A stretch of 64,000 nucleotides of DNA from Escherichia coli 042 (GTDB lineage Bacteria > Pseudomonadota > Gammaproteobacteria > Enterobacterales > Enterobacteriaceae). The position numbers were made by a program, and so were the translations under genes. Shown one piece after another: positions 7,825 through 53,583 of this stretch (position 1 is its first letter; each line of letters opens with the position of its first letter). The stretch lies in assembly GCF_000027125.1 (NCBI RefSeq), contig NC_017626.1; one strand, 5' to 3'. The notes below the pieces were generated by a model, which saw only the letters and a program-made list of their open reading frames with translations, made no database searches and was not told the origin of the DNA.

Positions 7825-9258
7825 ATGAATAAAAAATCGTTATGGAAGCTAATTCTGATATTAGCGATCCCATGTATTATTGGCTTTATGCCAGCTCCGG
7901 CAGGATTAAGCGAACTGGCGTGGGTGCTTTTTGGTATTTACCTGGCGGCCATTGTGGGGCTGGTTATCAAGCCTTTCCCGGAACCTGTCGTACTGTTAAT
8001 TGCCGTTGCTGCCTCAATGGTGGTGGTCGGTAACTTATCCGACGGTGCGTTTAAGACCACCGCCGTATTAAGTGGTTACTCTTCAGGTACCACCTGGCTG
8101 GTGTTCTCGGCGTTTACCTTAAGCGCCGCATTTGTGACCACCGGCTTAGGTAAACGTATAGCCTATCTGCTGATTGGTAAAATCGGTAACACCACGCTGG
8201 GTCTGGGTTACGTTACGGTATTCCTCGATCTGGTACTGGCTCCGGCAACACCGTCTAACACCGCGCGTGCGGGCGGCATTGTGTTACCGATCATCAACAG
8301 CGTGGCGGTGGCTTTGGGGTCAGAACCGGAAAAAAGCCCGCGTCGTGTTGGACATTACCTGATGATGTCCATTTACATGGTCACCAAAACCACCAGCTAT
8401 ATGTTCTTTACCGCAATGGCGGGGAACATTCTGGCGCTGAAAATGATCAACGATATTCTGCACCTGCAAATTAGCTGGGGTGGATGGGCGCTGGCCGCCG
8501 GATTGCCGGGTATCATTATGCTGCTGGTCACCCCGCTGGTGATTTACACCATGTATCCGCCAGAAATTAAGAAGGTGGATAACAAAACCATCGCCAAAGC
8601 GGGCCTTGCCGAACTGGGACCGATGAAAATCCGCGAAAAAATGCTGCTCGGTGTCTTCGTGCTGGCGCTGCTGGGCTGGATTTTCAGTAAGTCACTGGGG
8701 GTTGATGAATCCACCGTGGCAATCGTTGTTATGGCGACTATGCTGCTGCTGGGTATCGTTACCTGGGAAGACGTGGTTAAAAATAAAGGCGGCTGGAATA
8801 CCTTAATCTGGTACGGCGGTATTATCGGCTTAAGCTCCTTATTATCGAAAGTTAAATTCTTCGAATGGTTAGCTGAAGTCTTTAAAAATAACCTGGCATT
8901 TGATGGTCACGGTAACGTTGCTTTCTTCGTTATTATTTTCCTCAGCATTATCGTGCGTTATTTCTTCGCTTCCGGTAGTGCCTATATCGTTGCCATGTTA
9001 CCGGTATTTGCCATGCTGGCGAACGTCTCCGGCGCACCGTTAATGTTAACCGCGCTGGCACTGTTGTTCTCCAACTCCTATGGCGGCATGGTTACTCACT
9101 ATGGCGGCGCGGCAGGTCCGGTCATCTTTGGCGTGGGTTATAACGATATTAAATCCTGGTGGTTGGTCGGTGCGGTACTGACGATATTAACCTTCCTGGT
9201 GCATATCACCCTTGGCGTGTGGTGGTGGAATATGCTGATCGGCTGGAACATGCTGTAA
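7825..9258 (+). CDS. ybhI: DASS-family anion transporter YbhI
   Basis: 477-aa polytopic membrane ORF; gene order ybhH-ybhI-ybhJ. Confidence 0.85.
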   Translation: MNKKSLWKLILILAIPCIIGFMPAPAGLSELAWVLFGIYLAAIVGLVIKPFPEPVVLLIAVAASMVVVGNLSDGAFKTTAVLSGYSSGTTWLVFSAFTLSAAFVTTGLGKRIAYLLIGKIGNTTLGLGYVTVFLDLVLAPATPSNTARAGGIVLPIINSVAVALGSEPEKSPRRVGHYLMMSIYMVTKTTSYMFFTAMAGNILALKMINDILHLQISWGGWALAAGLPGIIMLLVTPLVIYTMYPPEIKKVDNKTIAKAGLAELGPMKIREKMLLGVFVLALLGWIFSKSLGVDESTVAIVVMATMLLLGIVTWEDVVKNKGGWNTLIWYGGIIGLSSLLSKVKFFEWLAEVFKNNLAFDGHGNVAFFVIIFLSIIVRYFFASGSAYIVAMLPVFAMLANVSGAPLMLTALALLFSNSYGGMVTHYGGAAGPVIFGVGYNDIKSWWLVGAVLTILTFLVHITLGVWWWNMLIGWNML

Positions 9259-9387
9259 ATATACTCGTCATACTTCAAGTTGCATGTGCTGCGTCTGCGT
9301 TCGCTCACCCCAGTCACTTACTTATGTAAGCTCCTGGGGATTCACTCGATTGTCGCCTTCCTGCAACTCGAATTATTTAGAGTATAT
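9259..9387. repeat. ERIC (IRU) enterobacterial repetitive intergenic element
   Basis: ~129 bp with imperfect terminal inverted repeats and the recalled ERIC core GTAAGCTCCTGGGGATTCAC / AAGTGACTGGGGTGAGCG. Confidence 0.7.
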
Positions 9388-9440
9388 CCATTTATTATCT
9401 TTCTGCGCACTTCTCGGTGCGCAGATATCTGGAGCATTTG

Positions 9441-11702
9441 ATGATCAAGTTATCTGAAAAAGGCGTGTTTCTCGCCAGTAATAACGAAATAATTGCCGAA
9501 GAACATTTCACCGGCGAAATTAAAAAAGAAGAAGCAAAAAAAGGCACTATTGCCTGGTCTATTCTCTCTTCTCATAATACGTCCGGAAATATGGATAAAC
9601 TTAAAATTAAGTTTGATTCATTAGCCTCTCACGATATTACCTTTGTTGGTATTGTACAGACCGCTAAAGCGTCCGGTATGGAACGTTTCCCGCTGCCGTA
9701 TGTGCTGACCAACTGCCATAACTCACTTTGCGCCGTCGGCGGCACCATTAACGGTGATGACCATGTTTTTGGTTTATCGGCGGCTCAGCGTTATGGCGGT
9801 ATTTTTGTGCCTCCGCATATTGCGGTCATCCATCAATATATGCGTGAGATGATGGCAGGCGGCGGCAAAATGATCCTCGGGTCAGACAGCCACACCCGTT
9901 ACGGTGCATTAGGGACAATGGCAGTCGGTGAGGGCGGCGGCGAGTTGGTAAAACAGCTGCTTAATGACACCTGGGATATCGACTATCCGGGAGTTGTTGC
10001 GGTGCATCTGACCGGAAAACCAGCGCCGTATGTGGGGCCACAGGATGTGGCGCTGGCTATCATCGGTGCCGTGTTCAAAAACGGCTACGTCAAAAACAAA
10101 GTGATGGAATTCGTAGGTCCCGGTGTTGCTGCGCTCTCTACCGATTTCCGTAACAGCGTTGACGTTATGACCACGGAAACGACCTGTTTAAGTTCTGTCT
10201 GGCAAACCGATGAAGAAGTCCATAACTGGCTGGCGCTGCACGGTCGCGGCCAGGATTACTGCCAGCTTAACCCTCAACCGATGGCGTACTACGATGGCTG
10301 CATCAGCGTTGATTTAAGCGCCATCAAACCAATGATTGCGCTGCCGTTCCACCCGAGCAACGTGTATGAAATCGACATGCTGAACCAGAACCTGACCGAC
10401 ATTCTGCGTGAGATTGAAATTGAGTCCGAACGCGTGGCGCACGGTAAAGCCAAACTCTCGCTGCTGGATAAAGTGGAAAATGGTCGCCTGAAAGTGCAGC
10501 AGGGGATTATCGCGGGCTGTTCTGGCGGTAACTACGAAAACGTCATCGCGGCGGCGAATGCACTGCGCGGTCAATCCTGTGGCAATGACACCTTCTCGTT
10601 AGCGGTTTACCCGTCATCACAGCCGGTGTTTATGGATTTAGCCAAAAAAGGCGTGGTAGCAGATTTGATTGGCGCAGGCGCAATCATCAGAACCGCGTTC
10701 TGCGGCCCATGCTTTGGCGCGGGCGATACGCCAATCAACAACGGTTTGAGTATTCGCCACACCACGCGTAACTTCCCGAACCGCGAAGGCTCTAAGCCAG
10801 CCAATGGGCAGATGTCAGCGGTGGCGTTGATGGACGCTCGTTCTATCGCTGCGACTGCGGCAAACGGTGGCTATTTAACCTCTGCCAGCGAACTTGATTG
10901 CTGGGACAACGTACCGGAGTACGCCTTCGATGTAACTCCGTATAAAAACCGTGTTTATCAGGGCTTTGTGAAAGGGGCGACCCAGCAACCATTGATTTAC
11001 GGACCGAACATAAAAGACTGGCCAGAATTGGGGGCGCTAACTGACAATATCGTCCTCAAAGTGTGCTCGAAGATCCTCGACGAAGTGACCACCACCGACG
11101 AACTGATCCCTTCCGGTGAAACCTCTTCTTATCGTTCAAATCCGATTGGTCTGGCGGAGTTTACCCTGTCACGCCGCGATCCAGGTTATGTTGGCAGAAG
11201 TAAAGCGACTGCTGAGCTGGAAAATCAGCGTCTGGCGGGGAATGTCAGCGAGCTGACAGAGGTGTTTGCGCGCATTAAGCAGATTGCTGGTCAGGAGCAT
11301 ATTGATCCGCTGCAAACTGAAATTGGCAGCATGGTCTATGCGGTGAAACCAGGCGATGGTTCAGCGCGTGAGCAGGCGGCGAGCTGCCAGCGTGTGATTG
11401 GCGGTCTGGCGAATATTGCCGAGGAGTACGCGACTAAACGCTACCGTTCTAACGTCATCAACTGGGGGATGTTACCGCTGCAGATGGCGGAAGCACCAAC
11501 GTTTGAAGTGGGGGATTACATTTACATCCCTGGCATTAAAGCAGCGCTGGATAATCCGGGTACGACGTTTAAAGGTTATGTGATCCATGAAGATGCGCCG
11601 GTAACGGAAATTACGCTTTACATGGAAAGCCTGACGGCCGAAGAGCGCGAGATTATCAAGGCGGGTAGTTTGATTAACTTCAATAAAAACCGTCAGATGT
11701 AA
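9441..11702 (+). CDS. ybhJ: Aconitase-family protein YbhJ
   Basis: Track ORF trimmed to [11 protein letters not shown]; 753 aa, aconitase-like. Confidence 0.85.
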
Positions 11703-13188: not shown

Positions 13189-14259
13189 TTATTTGATTTC
13201 AATTTTGTCCCACTCCCTGCCTCTGTCATCACGATACTGTGATGCCATGGTGTCCGACTTATGCCCGAGAAGATGTTGAGCAAACTTATCGCTTATCTGC
13301 TTCTCATAGAGTCTTGCAGACAAACTGCGCAACTCGTGAAATGTAGGCGGATCCCCTTCGAAGGAAAGACCTGATGCTTTTCGTGCGCGCATAAAATACC
13401 TTGATACTGTGCCGGATGAAAGCGGTTCACGACGAGTAGATGCAATTATGGTTTCTCCGCCAAGAATCTCTTTGCATTTATCAAGTGTTTCCTTCATTGA
13501 TATCCCGAGAGCATCAACATGCAATGTTGTAGGGATGGCAATTTTTACACCTGTTTTGCTTTGCTCGACATAAAGATATCCATCTACGATATCAGACCAC
13601 TTCATTTCGCATAAATCACCAACTCGCTGCCCGGTAACAACAGCCAGTTCCATTGCAAGTCTGAGCCAACATGGTGATGATTCTGCTGCTTGATAAATTT
13701 TCAGGTATTCGTCAGCCGTAAGTCTTGATCTCCTTACCTCTGATTTTGCTGCGCGAGTGGCAGCGACCGGGTTTGTTGTTATATGGCCTTCAGCTATTGC
13801 CTCTCGGAATGCATCGCTTAGTGTTGATCTGATTAACTTGGCTGACGCCGCCTTGCCCTCGTCTATGTATCCATTGAGCATTGCCGCAATTTCTTTTGTG
13901 GTGATGTTTTCAAGTGGAGCATCAGGCAGACCCCTCCTTATTGCTTTAATTTTGCTCATGTAATTTATGAGTGTCTTCTGCTTGATTCCTCTGTTGGCGA
14001 GGATTTTTTCGTAGCGATCAAGCCATGAATGTAACGTAACAGAATTATCACTGTTGATTCTCGCTGTCAGAGGCTTGTGTTTGTGTCCTGAAAATAACTC
14101 AATGTTGGCCTGTATAGCTTCAGTGATTGCTATCCTCCTGTCTCGGCCTAATCCAAACTCTTTACCCGTCCTTGGGTCCCTGTAGCAGTAATATCCATTG
14201 TTTCTTATATAAAGGTTAGGGGGTAAATCCCGGCGCTCATGACTTCGCCTTCTTCCCAT
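13189..14259 (-). CDS. int: Lambda integrase (tyrosine recombinase)
   Basis: 356 aa, MGRRRSHERRDLPPNLYIRNNGYYCYRDPRTGKEF..., essentially identical to recalled lambda Int. Confidence 0.97.
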   Translation of the reverse strand: MGRRRSHERRDLPPNLYIRNNGYYCYRDPRTGKEFGLGRDRRIAITEAIQANIELFSGHKHKPLTARINSDNSVTLHSWLDRYEKILANRGIKQKTLINYMSKIKAIRRGLPDAPLENITTKEIAAMLNGYIDEGKAASAKLIRSTLSDAFREAIAEGHITTNPVAATRAAKSEVRRSRLTADEYLKIYQAAESSPCWLRLAMELAVVTGQRVGDLCEMKWSDIVDGYLYVEQSKTGVKIAIPTTLHVDALGISMKETLDKCKEILGGETIIASTRREPLSSGTVSRYFMRARKASGLSFEGDPPTFHELRSLSARLYEKQISDKFAQHLLGHKSDTMASQYRDDRGREWDKIEIK

Positions 14260-47150: not shown

Positions 47151-47575
47151 TGGAACTGTGGCTGACGGTGAACGGTAAACGCACCTGCGCCAGCGCACCG
47201 CTGGATCCGCTGACCCGCGCCGTGGTGATTTCCCTGTTTACCTGGCGGCGGGCGGAGCCTGATGACAATGCCGACGTCCCGATGGGATGGTGGGGGGATA
47301 CCTGGCCTGAGGTACAGAATGACCGTTACGGCTCCCGACTGTGGCTGCTTCAGCGCAGCAAACTGACCAATCAACTGGTGCAGACGGTAAGGGGGTATAT
47401 CCGCGAATGCCTGCAATGGATGATTGATGACGGCGTGGTGTCCCGTATTGATCTGGATATCCGCCGCACCGGGATTAATGAACTGGGTAACAGTATCACT
47501 CTCTGGCGTCGTGACGGACCGGTAATGATTTCTTTTGATGATCTGTGGAGTGCGATAACGCATGGCGGACAGTGA
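47147..47575 (+). CDS. Baseplate protein (Mu gp46 / W-like)
   Basis: 142 aa. Confidence 0.65.
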   Translation: MMELWLTVNGKRTCASAPLDPLTRAVVISLFTWRRAEPDDNADVPMGWWGDTWPEVQNDRYGSRLWLLQRSKLTNQLVQTVRGYIRECLQWMIDDGVVSRIDLDIRRTGINELGNSITLWRRDGPVMISFDDLWSAITHGGQ

Positions 47576-48620
47576 ATTTCAGCGCCCGACGCTGGCAGAA
47601 AATATCAGTATGCTCCGTAACGATTTATTCGCCAGGCTGGACGTCAGCGACACGCTCCGGCGCATGGATGAAGACGTGCGGGCAAAGGTGTATGCGGCGG
47701 CGCTGCATACGGTTTACGGGTACATCGATTATCTGGCAATGAACATGCTGCCTGACCTGTGCGATGAGTCCTGGCTGGCGCGACATGCTGCGATGAAACG
47801 GTGTCCGCGCAAGGGGGCCACGGCTGCCAGCGGGTATATGCGCTGGGAAGGTGTCAGCGATGGCCTGAAGGTGACCGCCGGAAGTGTTATTCAGCGCGAT
47901 GACCTGGTTCAGTACACGGCAACTGCCGATGCAACCAGCACCGGTGGTGTCCTGCGCGTGCCGATCGCCTGCTCAAGTGCAGGCGCGGTCGGTAACGCTG
48001 ACGACGGTACGTCATTAATCCTGGTCACGCCGGTTAATGGTCTGCCGTCTTCCGGCGAGGCAGATACCCTGACAGGTGGATTTGATACTGAAGAGCTGGA
48101 AACGTGGCGCGCCCGCGTCATTGAGCGGTATTACTGGACGCCTCAGGGCGGGGCTGACGGGGACTATGTCGTCTGGGCTAAAGAAGTGCCCGGCATTACC
48201 CGCGCATGGACATACCGACACTGGATGGGAACGGGGACTGTCGGTGTGATGATTGCCAGCAGTGACCTGATTAACCCCATTCCGGAAGAATCAACGGAAA
48301 CGGCGGCAAGACAACATATCGAGCCACTGGCCCCGGTGGCAGGCTCTGATTTGTATGTATTCAGGCCGGTGGCGCACAAAGTGGATTTTCATATCCGCGT
48401 GACGCCGGACACACCGGAAATACGGGCTGCCATCACCGCGGAGTTGCGTTCATTCCTGCTGCGTGATGGTTATCCGCAGGGAGAGCTTAAGGTATCGCGT
48501 ATCAGTGAAGCGATTTCCGGTGCGAACGGGGAATACAGCCATCAGTTGCTTGCTCCGGCGGACAATATCTCCATTGCAAAAAATGAACTGGCGGTTCTGG
48601 GGACGATTTCATGGACGTGA
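47562..48620 (+). CDS. Baseplate J-like protein
   Basis: 352 aa. Confidence 0.75.
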
Positions 48621-49195
48621 CAAACGATGATTACATCCGTCTGTTGTCGGCACTGTTGCCCCCTGGTCCGGCGTGGTCAGCCAGCGATCCGGCGATTGCC
48701 GGTGCGGCACCGTCATTAACCCGTGCTCATCAGCGTGCGGATGCCCTGATGCGGGAGCTGGATCCGCGCACCACCACCGAACTGATAAACCGCTGGGAGC
48801 GTCTGTGCGGCCTGCCGGATGAATGTATTCCGGCAGGGACGCAGACCCTTCGCCAGCGTCAGCAACGGCTGGATGCGAAGGTTAACCTGGCGGGTGGCAT
48901 CAATGAGGATTTTTACCTTGCGCAGCTTGCTGCCCTGGGCAGACCAGATGCCACCATCACGCGATACGACAAAAGCACGTTCACCTGCTCATCGGCCTGT
49001 ACTGACGCGGTGAATGCGCCGGAATGGCGGTATTACTGGCAGGTCAATATGCCAGCTGCCACCAACACCACCTGGATGACATGTGGCGATCCCTGTGATT
49101 CCGCACTGCGTATCTGGGGGGACACCGTTGTCGAGTGCGTGCTTAACAAACTCTGCCCGTCGCATACCTACGTAATTTTTAAATATCCGGAGTAA
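48611..49195 (+). CDS. Tail protein (Mu gp48 / P2 I-like)
   Basis: 194 aa. Confidence 0.65.
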
Positions 49196-49198
49196 TTC

Positions 49199-50131
49199 AT
49201 GCATCGTATAGACACGAAAACCGCGCAGAAGGATAAGTTCGGCGCGGGTAAGAACGGTTTTACCCGTGGTAACCCCCAGACCGGCACGCCTGCCACCGAT
49301 CTGGATGATGACTACTTTGACATGTTGCAGGAGGAGCTTTGCAGCGTGGTGGAGGCATCCGGTGCCAGCCTGGAGAAGGGGCGGCATGACCAGTTGCTTA
49401 CAGCGCTTCGTGAGCTGCTGTTAAGCCGCAAGAATCCGTTTGGCGATATCAAATCGGATGGCACGGTGAAAACGGCTCTCGAAAACCTTGGTTTGGGAGA
49501 TGGCTCGGGGCGTTACAGCAAAACTGTCGTTTTTTCATCGTCGGGTTCATATACGTGGCCAGCTGACGTAAAACGAATTGACGTTATTCTGACTGCGGCG
49601 GGCGGCGGTGGCGGTGGATGTAACGCGGAGAACGCAAATCAGACATTTTCAGGGGCTGGCGGAGGAGCCGGAGGTACTGTTTTTGCCACTATTTATGCGA
49701 CAGACAACGATGCCGGGCCAGGAACCTATACAGTGACAATTGGCAGCGGTGGTAGTGGTGCCAATGGGGCAGGGTCTGGAAATAATGGCGGTAATAGTTC
49801 GTTCATGACATTAACTGCGCTCGGCGGCCAGGGTGGGCAATGGGGCGGCGCTACAAATACCGCTGGCGGGCGCGGTGGCTCAGGCTCTGGCGGTTATAAA
49901 ACTGAACAAGGCGGAGACGGTTCAGACGGACAGGCGGGCCAGGCGCTATTAGTAGGCAATGGGGCATCGAGCTATTGGGGTGGCGGCGGCCGCGCTGGGC
50001 AACTGAGCGGTAATCCTGGAGTTTGCTCTGGCTCCGGCGGCGGGGGTGCATACGATAATAGCTATTCACACACGTCAGGACGTGGCGGGCACGGAGCTAA
50101 TGGCGTGCTGGTAATTCGGGAGTACATGTAA
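49199..50131 (+). CDS. Tail fiber protein with glycine-rich C-terminal domain
   Basis: 310 aa; conserved N-terminal region then Gly-rich low-complexity C-terminus. Confidence 0.8.
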
Positions 50132-50536
50132 ATGAATGATGTTTATGCAGTTGTTGATAATAACGTTGTTATTAATGTCATTATCTGGGACGGAATTTCT
50201 GAATGGAAACCAGAGGCTGGTAATTTAGTTCCGTTAAACGGCGATGCTGGCATCGGTTGGTCATATTCAGACGGAGTATTTACCGCGCCACCTCCCCCAG
50301 AACGCTCTCACAACGCGTTAGTTGCGGAGGCTGAGCTGCAGAAATCAGCACTACTGACCGTAGCAAATAACGCAATAGCACCGCTGCAGGATGCCGTTGA
50401 TTTGGAAATGGCGACAGACGATGAACAGACGTTACTGCTGGCGTGGAAAAAATACAGGGTACTGCTGAACCGTGTTGATACCTCAGCGGCACCCGAAATA
50501 GAGTGGCCTACGCAACCGGGGGAGCGGGCCAGTTGA
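50132..50536 (+). CDS. Tail fiber assembly chaperone (Tfa)
   Basis: 134 aa with Tfa C-terminal motif [28 protein letters not shown]. Confidence 0.8.
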
Positions 50537-50657
50537 TATCAGGCGCAGGGGCAGCATCAACTGCTGTCACTGCGTCGATGTAGTCGAGTACCGCATTCAG
50601 CCGCCTTTTTTCATCATCAGTCAGTTTGCGGCCTACACCTCTCCGTTGACATCTTTG
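50511..50657 (-). pseudogene. Relic of a second, inverted tail-fiber-assembly gene (C-terminal 49 codons, no start)
   Basis: Minus-strand open frame ...[39 protein letters not shown] mirrors the Tfa C-terminal motif; overlaps tfa 3' end convergently. Confidence 0.45.
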
Positions 50658-50834
50658 TTATATGGTACAACTGCGCAGAGGCCTGTCTCTCCAACTGTGC
50701 CAGTTGAATACTACGATACAACGCTCGGCCTTCCTATTTGGTGGAACATAACCACATCCACATGGAAAAGAGCTGATGGTGCAGATGTATAATTCTGGTG
50801 CCGCGCATGCGGCACCAATAAAAAACATATTAAA

Positions 50835-52310
50835 CTAAAGTGAATCTATTCCATTTTTCCAAATAAGAACTTTTTTGTCTTGTATTTTATGAGTGCTATC
50901 AGGCTGCCCAAACTGTTTTATGGCCTTTTCCTCTTGCTCTACATCATCAGCAATTAAAAAATTAGCTCCTTTTTGGTACCATTCTTTTTTTGATAACCAA
51001 TTATATGGTGTGAATCTATCACCATACGACTCAAATGGAGCTACGTTGATATCACTAAATCCAGCAACAGATGATGCAAACCAAAATGATGCATAACCTC
51101 TTTGTAGTTTATTTTTTATTAAGAAATCTCTTAATTCTATTGTAATATCATTTTTATTAACAATGTTTTTTGTTGTTGCCATCGTTGGCAACGATAACGC
51201 AATAACGATTAATGATATTAGTAAATTTGTCTTCACTGGTAAGGAGAAAGAATTTCTAGCAATCACAATTGACATGAAAATAAATGTTGGGACTATGTAT
51301 CTAATTGAGAAAAGATTTGTTGGCCTGTCACTTGAAACATAGGCAATCAACATGACTAATGATGATACAATAAGAACCTGGTCAATAAAATCAATTTCTT
51401 TAAATTTAAGAATGTTTTTATAAGATAAAAATAAGAATACAAAAATGAAAAACACCTTTATCATGGTGAATAATGAGTTAAAGCTACCTATCTCCATTCC
51501 AAACGCGTACCCACCAAAAAATTTGAATACGCCCATGATAACAAGAGATATGTTGCTTGTTATTTGTTGAAACTCTACTATGTGAGGTTTGGTTATGCCT
51601 GGCAGGTTAAATCCACCAAGCTTAATGAATATAAATGATATGATCTCAGCAATAAATATAGATGATATAGTGAAAACCAACAATAACAAATCATTAGTAT
51701 TCAACGAATCTCTTTTCATTAGAGAAGCATACATTCTATATATGCAAACAAAAACTATAGGTATTATAAAGGCATATTTAGATATATCATCACTAAAAAC
51801 AAGCAACGATAACATAAATACATATGGAAAAAGTAATTTTAAATCATTTTTCTTTCTGTATCTATCTATTATTAGTATGATCGCCAGCATGTAAATGTAC
51901 GCACCAATATGTATACATGCTATAAGCATTATACTTGATGAGAAAACCGTTGGAATTCCAAATACAGAAAGAACAGGCCATAACGATGCCCTACTTTTAG
52001 TATGAGAGATATATAGCGATAGTGTTACTAATATAGACATGAAAACTCCAGGCACAATATAGTACAGATTTTCATTAAATCCTATTATTTTTATCGCTAT
52101 AGCATATGGTATTATTTCTGTGAAATAGAATGATACAGTTGATAAATCCCACCCACTGAGAAAAATATTTCCTTCAGTAATATCCCTTGCCTCTCTGAAT
52201 GAAGACATGACATCTGAGTTTGGAATTATGTTTTTAGCAATCATTGAGTAAATTATTGATAATACAATAAATGTTGCCAGCCAATATAAAAGCTCAAGCT
52301 TCTTGCTCAT
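50835..52310 (-). CDS. Serotype-specific O-antigen glucosyltransferase (GtrC-type)
   Basis: 491-aa polytopic membrane protein, strongly AT-rich, downstream of gtrA-gtrB in same operon. Confidence 0.75.
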
Positions 52311-53224
52311 TTTTTACCCTTAAGTACATACTTTGGACGCTGCTTAACTTCAATGTAAATTCTACCAATATACTCACCGAGCACTCCAATCCCAATTAAC
52401 TGGATGCCGCCAAGAAATAATATTGATACAAGAATTGAAGGGTATCCAGGTACATTATTACCAAAAATTAATTTATCAATTATCATCCATGAACCGTATG
52501 TAAATGATATACATGCAATAAATAACCCAATATAGGTCCACATGCGAAGCGGGAATGTTGAGAAGCTAGTGATCCCTTCCAGCGCCAAGTTCCATAGCTT
52601 CCATCCATTGAACTTTGTGCTTCCTGCAACGCGTTCTGCTCGCGCATATTCTACGACATCGGTTCGACCACCAACCCAGCTCAGCACACCCTTCATAAAC
52701 AGGTTTCGTTCTGGCATGAGCTTAATATTTTCTACTACTTCGCGAGACATGAGCCGGAAGTCGCCAACATTCTCTTCTATCTGAGGGTTGCTGATTTTGT
52801 TATGAAGTTTATAGAACCACTCAGCAGATTTACGCTTCAGCCTGCTGTCAGTGGAGCGGTCAGAGCGTTTAGCCAGAACCATATCTGCACCGGCCTGCCA
52901 TTTCTCTATCAAGTGAGGAATAACTTCGATAGGGTCTTGCAGATCAACGTCAATCGGGATAATTGCCTCCCCGGTAGCATGGTCCAGACCTGCGAACAGG
53001 GCGGGTTCTTTGCCGAAGTTACGTGTGAACGACAGCGAAACCACAAGCGGGTCGGCAACAGCGAGCTCGTTGATAATTGATTCTGTAGCGTCTTTGCTGC
53101 CATCGTTTATGAAGACTATCTCGACTTCATGCTGCTGAAGCCCTTCAAATTCGCGCACAGTTTTATAAAAAATAGGTATCGTGGCCTCTTCGTTAAAGAC
53201 CGGAACGACTAAAGAAATTTTCAT
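52307..53224 (-). CDS. gtrB: Bactoprenol glucosyltransferase GtrB
   Basis: 305 aa; GT2 N-terminal domain ([13 protein letters not shown]...DGSKD) plus C-terminal TM helices. Confidence 0.9.
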
Positions 53225-53583
53225 TTCGCATCCCTAAAGACAATGAACTTTGAATAGACGAAACCGCACACCAGGCTGATGGCGGAGAAGGTGACAAGAG
53301 TTATCATCGGGGGAAGTGCGCATCTATCAGCAGCCCATCCAACAGTAGCACTGAGTGTTCCCATGAACCCGACATATAACATGTAGCGCATCGTTGTAGT
53401 TGATGCTTTGAATGTGAATTTTGCATTCGCGAAGAAGCTAAAACTCACAGCCACAACGAAACCTGCGAAGTTTGCCAGAGCCTGATTGGTATGCGCGGCA
53501 TAGATACATACACCAAAAACCACCCAGTGTATAAGTGTGTTCAGCACACCAATCGAGGTGTACCTTGCAAATATATTTAACAT
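53221..53583 (-). CDS. gtrA: GtrA flippase-like small membrane protein
   Basis: 120 aa, four TM segments, first gene of gtr operon. Confidence 0.88.

Follow-up and report, generated by a model that had tools for sequence, protein, structure and literature searches.

The gene considered here lies at positions 49199..50131 (+) of a 64,000-nucleotide stretch of Escherichia coli 042 DNA (NC_017626.1), and this whole stretch is referred to as the window. It is an intact open reading frame (ORF) which starts with ATG, spans exactly these positions and runs uninterrupted for 310 codons, with a GGAG sequence located 8–11 nt upstream of the start codon. Based on the ORF listing, the sequence and the PHROG tail-fibre families, its 310-amino-acid (aa) product is a phage tail fibre. 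The preliminary description of this DNA had named it so, and the assignment holds: the gene follows Mu gp47/gp48-type genes and precedes the chaperone gene tfa, aa 1–100 match SfV ORF21, and the predicted fold agrees. The best explanation of the locus as a whole, with an assigned probability of about 0.85, is that the gene encodes the one short tail fibre of a temperate, SfV-like myovirus prophage whose baseplate is of the Mu type. The gene is real but ordinary and reveals no new kind of system, and its glycine-rich C-terminus belongs to a known, structurally solved family of receptor-binding domains.

The glycine-rich C-terminal domain

The C-terminal part of the fibre (aa 101–310, 49499..50128, +) is predicted to form a tumour necrosis factor (TNF)-like beta-sandwich with a glycine-rich lattice and is the putative receptor-binding domain. 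The last 170 or so residues had been described as dominated by glycine with interspersed serine, alanine and asparagine, which the composition bears out. Residues 134–310 (177 aa) consist of 34% Gly, 11% Ala, 10% Ser and 7% Asn, and residues 1–100 have an ordinary composition with 11% Gly. All three strings quoted in that description are present: GGGGGGCN at aa 135–142, a second glycine-rich string of 20 aa at aa 182–201, and GGQGGQWGG at aa 209–217. The bias does not originate from a repeat in the DNA, since Tandem Repeats Finder detected no repeat within positions 49100–50250 and all four glycine codons are in use (GGC 30, GGT 20, GGG 12, GGA 12).

The only Pfam match of the fibre is PF21722 (Gly_rich_2), which scores 68.2 bits (cut-off 24.3) and covers aa 114–307 (49538–50119), corresponding to profile positions 2–224 of 226. 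The same domain is covered by the PHROG families 863, 6202, 454 and 12796. When the domain was compared by tblastn with 50,697 phage records, no match was obtained; as the PHROG families cover the domain, this empty result reflects the low-complexity filter and not an absence. An exhaustive search of 1.84 billion representative sequences found the domain in 1753 clusters at E ≤ 1e-3. It occupies the C-terminus, or ends a few residues short of it, in nearly all of the 150 representatives listed, which are proteins of 223–1405 aa. Identical or near-identical 310-aa proteins occur on hundreds of E. coli contigs, and a word-indexed homologue search recovered only proteins of 97–100% identity. The diversity for the deep alignment of 68 sequences was taken from the exhaustive representative search. 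Glycine is conserved at a level of at least 90% in 27 columns of this alignment, and since its 67 homologues are only 30–69% identical, the glycine positions are conserved rather than random. The fibre, Tfa and the gp48-like protein have no match in NCBIfam. A literature search for PF21722, Gly_rich_2 and "glycine-rich domain-containing protein" led to plant papers only, and in the RBPseg fibre atlas polyglycine appears only in the reference list.

The structure prediction of the C-terminal domain, which had been proposed as a check, was made with AlphaFold2 and gave a predicted local distance difference test (pLDDT) score of 96–99 across aa 105–310. In Foldseek, the model matched chain 7ypx_A, the fibre protein gp24 of phage Pam3, with an E value of 1.7e-12. 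The relation can also be followed in sequence. The single fibre sequence matches Pam3 gp24 at E 0.025, and the profile of the 68 sequences reaches E 8.6e-23 over gp24 residues 43–284, which is almost the full protein. In Pam3, the helical docking domain of gp24 lies at the N-terminus, and behind it comes a TNF-like sandwich whose strands continue into a four-layer lattice of glycine motifs (PMC9608196). It contains twelve glycine-rich motifs and forms a homotrimer in a 3:3 complex with its chaperone, which is missing from virions. A pattern search in the fibre of the window located ten glycine-rich motifs inside the domain and one at the module junction, aa 100–105.

Such results bear directly on a reading in which the region is a disordered low-complexity spacer or an accident of composition. 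The abundance of Gly with Ser, Ala and Asn speaks for it, and so does the removal of the tblastn matches by the low-complexity filter of BLAST. The conserved glycine columns, the match to a curated Pfam domain, the confident fold, the strong matches to solved structures and the lack of a DNA repeat stand against it, and the disordered tail was rejected with practically no credence left to it. The term low-complexity, applied to the region in the preliminary description, is thus to be withdrawn in favour of a folded, known domain.

The further claim of a hypervariable receptor-binding region stands in part. At the level of the family, the glycine motifs are kept. Variability is located in the intervening segments, together with the indels and the insertion hot spots, in agreement with the conserved stem and variable distal tip described for Pam3 gp24 (PMC9608196). 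Within the E. coli lineage, variation is no higher in the C-terminal domain (39 variable sites in 210 aa) than in the N-terminus (18 in 100 aa). The diversity of the fibre comes from the exchange of the entire module.

The predicted fold also resembles the TG domain of the receptors ALK and LTK (PDB 7LIR, 7LRZ, 7NX1), which are found on metazoan cell surfaces and have protein cytokines as their ligands. This is a resemblance of fold only, with no sequence relation between the TG domain and the fibre detectable by profile comparison; the same resemblance was previously noted for Pam3 (PMC9608196). A further relative is gp38 of S16 and other T-even phages (PDB 6F45), which likewise has a packed lattice of glycine motifs with variable distal loops for host recognition (PMC9608196). 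Neither a sequence match nor a fold match to gp38 was found for the fibre, nor is there a separate tip protein as in those phages. The profile of the fibre family additionally matches the N-terminal region of RemZ (PDB 8gl8_D, residues 3–198; three PDB entries) with E 8.7e-5, a sequence match which suggests that Gly_rich_2 is also present in non-phage bacterial proteins.

The N-terminal module, the junction and the chaperone

The N-terminal module of the fibre (aa 1–100, 49199..49498, +) ends at the motif ENLGLG. It is identical to SfV ORF21 in 97 of 100 positions, and the two proteins are unrelated after ENLGLG: the C-terminal 116 aa of ORF21 bear no relation to the glycine-rich domain, and homology does not extend over the full length. 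At the DNA level, identity to SfV, SfI, SfII and SfIV stops at position 49500 of the window. AlphaFold2 places helices at aa 37–53, 65–75, 82–86 and 90–96. The N-terminus matches residues 37–113 of the Mu protein S at E 0.07 as a single sequence and at E 0.0011 as a profile, and in Foldseek it matches the Mu baseplate chain 9ki1_j with a probability of 0.99. The N-terminus of Mu S is the part which is visible in the Mu baseplate structure 9KI1. Because the module is predicted to be helical and resembles this part of Mu S, aa 1–100 are taken, from sequence and model, as the probable baseplate-docking end. In many homologues, the glycine-rich domain comes after a hinge motif, either (N)LGLGD or LGLSD. 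Of 5426 complete E. coli genomes, 65 contain the whole fibre gene and 1863 contain any match, mostly a partial one.

Public annotation of the same gene offers a different account, in which the locus is a decayed remnant composed of a truncated stfP pseudogene and a separate 212-aa glycine-rich protein, or in which the product is a carbohydrate kinase. In NZ_CP095529.1, PGAP does give a partial stfP pseudogene and a "glycine-rich domain-containing protein" which starts from an internal TTG (codon 99), and in many NCBI records the 310-aa protein goes under the name "carbohydrate kinase". The two PGAP features (positions 9001–9307 and 9295–9933 of locus L001, where the fibre occupies 9001–9933) overlap and share one frame, their starts being 294 nt or 98 codons apart, so the split is an artefact of one intact ORF. 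The ORF is continuous in the window, the annotation of many genomes has the 310-aa form as a single protein, and homologues of 276–344 aa have the same two-module layout. The split pseudogene was therefore rejected. The kinase was rejected as well, as neither Pfam nor NCBIfam contains a kinase family that matches. Decay or misidentification of this kind is considered very improbable. The RefSeq pseudogene with its "glycine-rich domain-containing protein", and the older "carbohydrate kinase", are thus to be corrected to one intact tail fibre. A scan for promoters and terminators around the fibre gene found none which exceeded the shuffled expectation.

The stop codon of the fibre gene is directly abutted by the ATG of a tail-fibre assembly chaperone gene, tfa (50132..50536, +, 134 aa), whose product matches PF02413 (Caudo_TAP) with E 1e-32 and 113.5 bits (cut-off 22.1). 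The N-terminal beta domain of Tfa (aa 1–57, 50132..50302, +) is predicted to bind the TNF-like/glycine-rich domain, and the C-terminal helical domain (aa 58–134, 50303..50533, +) is a predicted trimerisation module. The C-terminal half matches Mu U (5yvq_B, E 4.8e-13) and SfV ORF22, and the N-terminal half has no match in SfV ORF22. In the AlphaFold2 model (pLDDT 88), five beta strands lie within aa 3–51 and helices span aa 60–90 and 96–114. The sole significant Foldseek match of this model in the PDB is Pam3 gp25 (7ypx_a, E 1.8e-4, probability 1.0). Since the fibre matches gp24 and Tfa matches gp25, the two neighbouring genes correspond to two chains of one solved complex, 7YPX.

The linkage of the two genes is maintained elsewhere. 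A Caudo_TAP gene of 130–138 aa lies directly downstream of the Gly_rich_2 fibre in all six loci examined (the window, L003, L004, L006/L007, L008 and L009), which together provide five non-redundant Tfas. The N-terminal residues, about 57, are common to all five, and their C-termini fall into two classes, one of which is Mu U-like and the other of which is present in three of the five. The shafts differ in a similar manner. L003 occupies the same chromosomal site and has a longer fibre, which contains Phage_fiber_2 repeats and carries the tip with 98% identity. A P1-type fibre of 1405 aa (L009, 3918–8545) ends in a Gly_rich_2 tip which is 54% identical; the phage that encodes it has genes of the P1 type (Phage_P1_Gp16, tail fibre R, DarA and LydB), and the Tfa encoded after it shares its N-terminal domain with the Tfa of the window. 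Because the N-terminal residues of Tfa track the glycine-rich domain while its C-terminus differs, the fibre tip and the N-domain of the chaperone appear from these comparisons to be exchanged together as a cassette. If they do travel together, fibre engineering would therefore have to swap both.

A second tfa is represented by a fragment. On the opposite strand, a 44-codon remnant of the C-terminal part of a convergent tfa (50508..50642, −) overlaps the 3′ end of the intact gene. Its translation resembles the second class of Tfa C-termini, and PGAP labels its equivalent as a partial tail fibre assembly protein. The remnant may be a vestige of an invertible segment with alternative fibres, such as Mu G or e14 P. 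No invertase gene was seen within the 300 bp before the gtr cassette.

The prophage and the gtr cassette

The fibre gene stands at the end of the late operon of the prophage. It is preceded by genes for a Baseplate J/Mu gp47-type protein (47562..48620, +; PF04865, E 4.3e-52) and, immediately 5′ of the fibre, for a Mu gp48-type baseplate wedge protein of the YmfQ family (48611..49195, +; PF10076, E 1.6e-26; phrog_203). On the other side, the interval from the tail-fibre genes to the attachment site holds an O-antigen glucosylation (gtr) cassette at 50835..53583 (−), which is neighbouring context and does not belong to the fibre. The cassette consists of a type-specific gene (50835–52310), gtrB (52307–53224), which matches PF00535 (GT2), and gtrA (53221–53583), which matches the flippase-like family PF04138. 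This layout of baseplate genes, fibre, Tfa, gtr genes and att is that of SfV, in which the fibre is ORF21, Tfa is ORF22 and the gtr genes follow in the same order, gtrV-gtrB-gtrA. The position of the fibre gene, after a Mu gp48-like gene and before tfa, with gtr downstream, is shared by SfV ORF21 and by StfP of the E. coli element e14.

The type-specific gtr gene is assigned by position alone. Its 491-aa product has no Pfam match, its G+C content is about 30% compared with about 55% in its neighbours, and it is found, under the label "hypothetical protein", in only 11 of the 5426 complete E. coli genomes. In the prophage of E. coli strain GN06156, the same position is taken by an unrelated 495-aa Glucos_trans_II gene. 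The fibre genes of the window and GN06156 are 98.3% identical and gtrA/B are 99.5% identical, and the type-specific genes have no nucleotide similarity.

Past the gtr cassette, the chromosomal genes ybhB and bioA are reached. The prophage extends over approximately 13100–53700 between ybhC and ybhB, next to bioA, in the region where the attachment site of phage lambda lies. Positions 13189–14259 encode a lambda-type integrase that has an arm-DNA-binding domain. The near-identical GN06156 prophage also lies between ybhC and ybhB, with its integrase at the far end, and contains a gene for a TIR-domain protein as well as an IS3 insertion. The early region of the window prophage (14.5–31.4 kb) has almost no similarity to it. 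The interval from the tfa remnant to the gtr cassette contains a 48-aa ORF (MTSLLYGTTAQRPVSPTVPVEYYDTTLGLPIWWNITTSTWKRADGADV) at 50646–50792 (+), and the similarity to GN06156 stops inside it, at window position 50742. This ORF has no Pfam match, and among 5.8 billion sequences it has just three homologues, all of them near-identical hypothetical proteins from E. coli.

The arrangement of these genes also bears on whether the glycine-rich domain could be an accessory cell-wall-binding or enzymatic brush, as proposed for gp33 of phage Bxb1, a non-essential wing component. In Bxb1, the tail wing brush gp33 and the spike gp29 (PDB 9D93) are accessories of a siphovirus that are joined through gp30/gp31 and are not baseplate fibres; a related phage lacks homologues, suggesting that they are dispensable. 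In the window, no second fibre or tailspike gene was found in the stretch from the baseplate genes to the gtr cassette, and the N-terminus of the fibre is a docking module of the SfV/Mu type. Moreover, Pam3 gp24, the closest structural relative, is reported to be the only fibre of its phage. An accessory brush is thus an improbable explanation for a gene which is better described as the single short fibre of the prophage.

Proposed architecture and receptor of the fibre

The proposed fibre is composed of two exchangeable modules which meet at ENLGLG|D. Residues 1–100 would form a helical stalk docked on the baseplate beside the gp47/gp48-type wedge proteins. From aa ~105 to 310, the chain is predicted to adopt the fold of Pam3 gp24, in which the strands of a TNF-like beta-sandwich extend into a lattice of glycine-rich segments. 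By analogy with Pam3, three chains would assemble into a compact, torch-shaped fibre. The conserved glycines would pack the lattice, and the variable, indel-prone segments would form the distal surface facing the receptor, as in gp24, where the stem is conserved and the variable distal tip is proposed to bind the receptor (PMC9608196). Folding and trimerisation of the fibre would depend on the downstream Tfa. Its N-terminal beta domain would hold the side of the TNF-like/glycine-rich domain and its C-terminal helices would trimerise, again by analogy: the variable N-terminal beta-sandwich of Pam3 gp25 grips the TNF-like domain and the one rich in glycine, and its helical trimerisation domain is conserved (PMC9608196). 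The cassette of tip and Tfa N-domain would have been joined to short fibres of the Mu type, to longer ones that contain Phage_fiber_2 repeats and to the 1405-aa P1-type fibre.

The likeness to Pam3 gp24/gp25 (PDB 7YPX, 7YFW; PMC9608196, PMC9942802) thus includes homology, fold, a helical docking domain and a dedicated downstream chaperone. The window fibre differs in its enterobacterial host, its temperate SfV-like prophage and its docking module of the SfV ORF21/Mu S type. Its Tfa is shorter than gp25 (134 versus 162 aa) and has a C-domain that is clearly Mu U-like.

Lipopolysaccharide (LPS), in the form of O-antigen or core, is by analogy somewhat favoured as the receptor, with an outer-membrane protein as the main alternative. 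In two Klebsiella phages with Pam3-like fibres, LPS acts as the receptor or as the trigger of DNA release (PMC12671077, PMC11633184). The fibre TFP_Y of phage SCNJ1-Y acquired host-adaptive mutations in the glycine-rich domain, and LPS triggers its DNA release; in MMNM_27, such mutations fall in long inter-strand loops, and phage MMNM needs LPS as its receptor. Both are lytic "minimalist" myoviruses and not prophages with a gtr cassette, and are likened here by description. In addition, the host ranges of SfI, SfII, SfIV and SfV are set by the O-antigen serotype (PMC3851460). The preliminary description had argued for a polysaccharide receptor from the neighbouring gtr cassette. This argument is weak, because the same fibre stands beside a different type-specific gtr gene in GN06156 and because the domain also occurs elsewhere with no called gtr gene nearby. 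In the P1-like phage and in stretches adjacent to insertion sequences, there are no gtr genes among the genes called near the Gly_rich_2 domain.

Several points weigh against the reading proposed here. The structure model of the fibre is a monomer prediction without the trimer or the fibre–chaperone complex, and its first 30 residues are poorly predicted (pLDDT 46–58). The Tfa model was built from six sequences, and a pLDDT of 88 was reached in one of five models. With at least two type-specific gtr genes paired with the fibre, the link between fibre and gtr is loose. The identity of the receptor is proposed from analogy, and the structurally related S16 gp38 adhesin, which binds outer-membrane proteins, is not known to bind LPS.

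The same fibre with the same fold could instead recognise a protein of the outer membrane, which is what the glycine-rich gp38 adhesins do in T-even phages. Adhesins of the gp38 type bind OmpC, OmpF, FadL or Tsx. Pam3 gp24 was reported to be similar to S16 gp38, in which the polyglycine domain mediates host recognition (PMC9608196), and the fibre is not bound to one type of gtr and its domain also occurs where no gtr gene was called. The missing sequence or fold match to gp38 and the behaviour of the two Klebsiella phages count on the other side. A protein receptor is thus possible but rather doubtful, and LPS is retained as the preferred candidate.

A more far-reaching proposal, which is put forward tentatively, is that the tip and the chaperone N-domain form a self-contained mobile receptor-binding cassette. 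It would be spliced at the conserved hinge (N)LGLGD onto unrelated shafts of the Mu/SfV type, the Phage_fiber_2-repeat type and the P1 S-type, and in this prophage family it would recognise the unmodified O-antigen, which is later masked by the adjacent gtr genes. If this is true, ligand recognition by the TNF-like/glycine-rich fold, on which human ALK and LTK also rely, could be studied in an E. coli prophage as a genetically tractable model.

Through the match to Pam3 gp24/gp25, a frequent E. coli prophage gene is tied to a solved fibre–chaperone complex, which therefore serves as a structural template for predicting the loops that determine host range. The model predicts that host-range variation is located in the segments between the glycine motifs, at aa 141–151, 186–196, 199–208, 211–222, 226–237, 246–252, 268–277 and 287–295.
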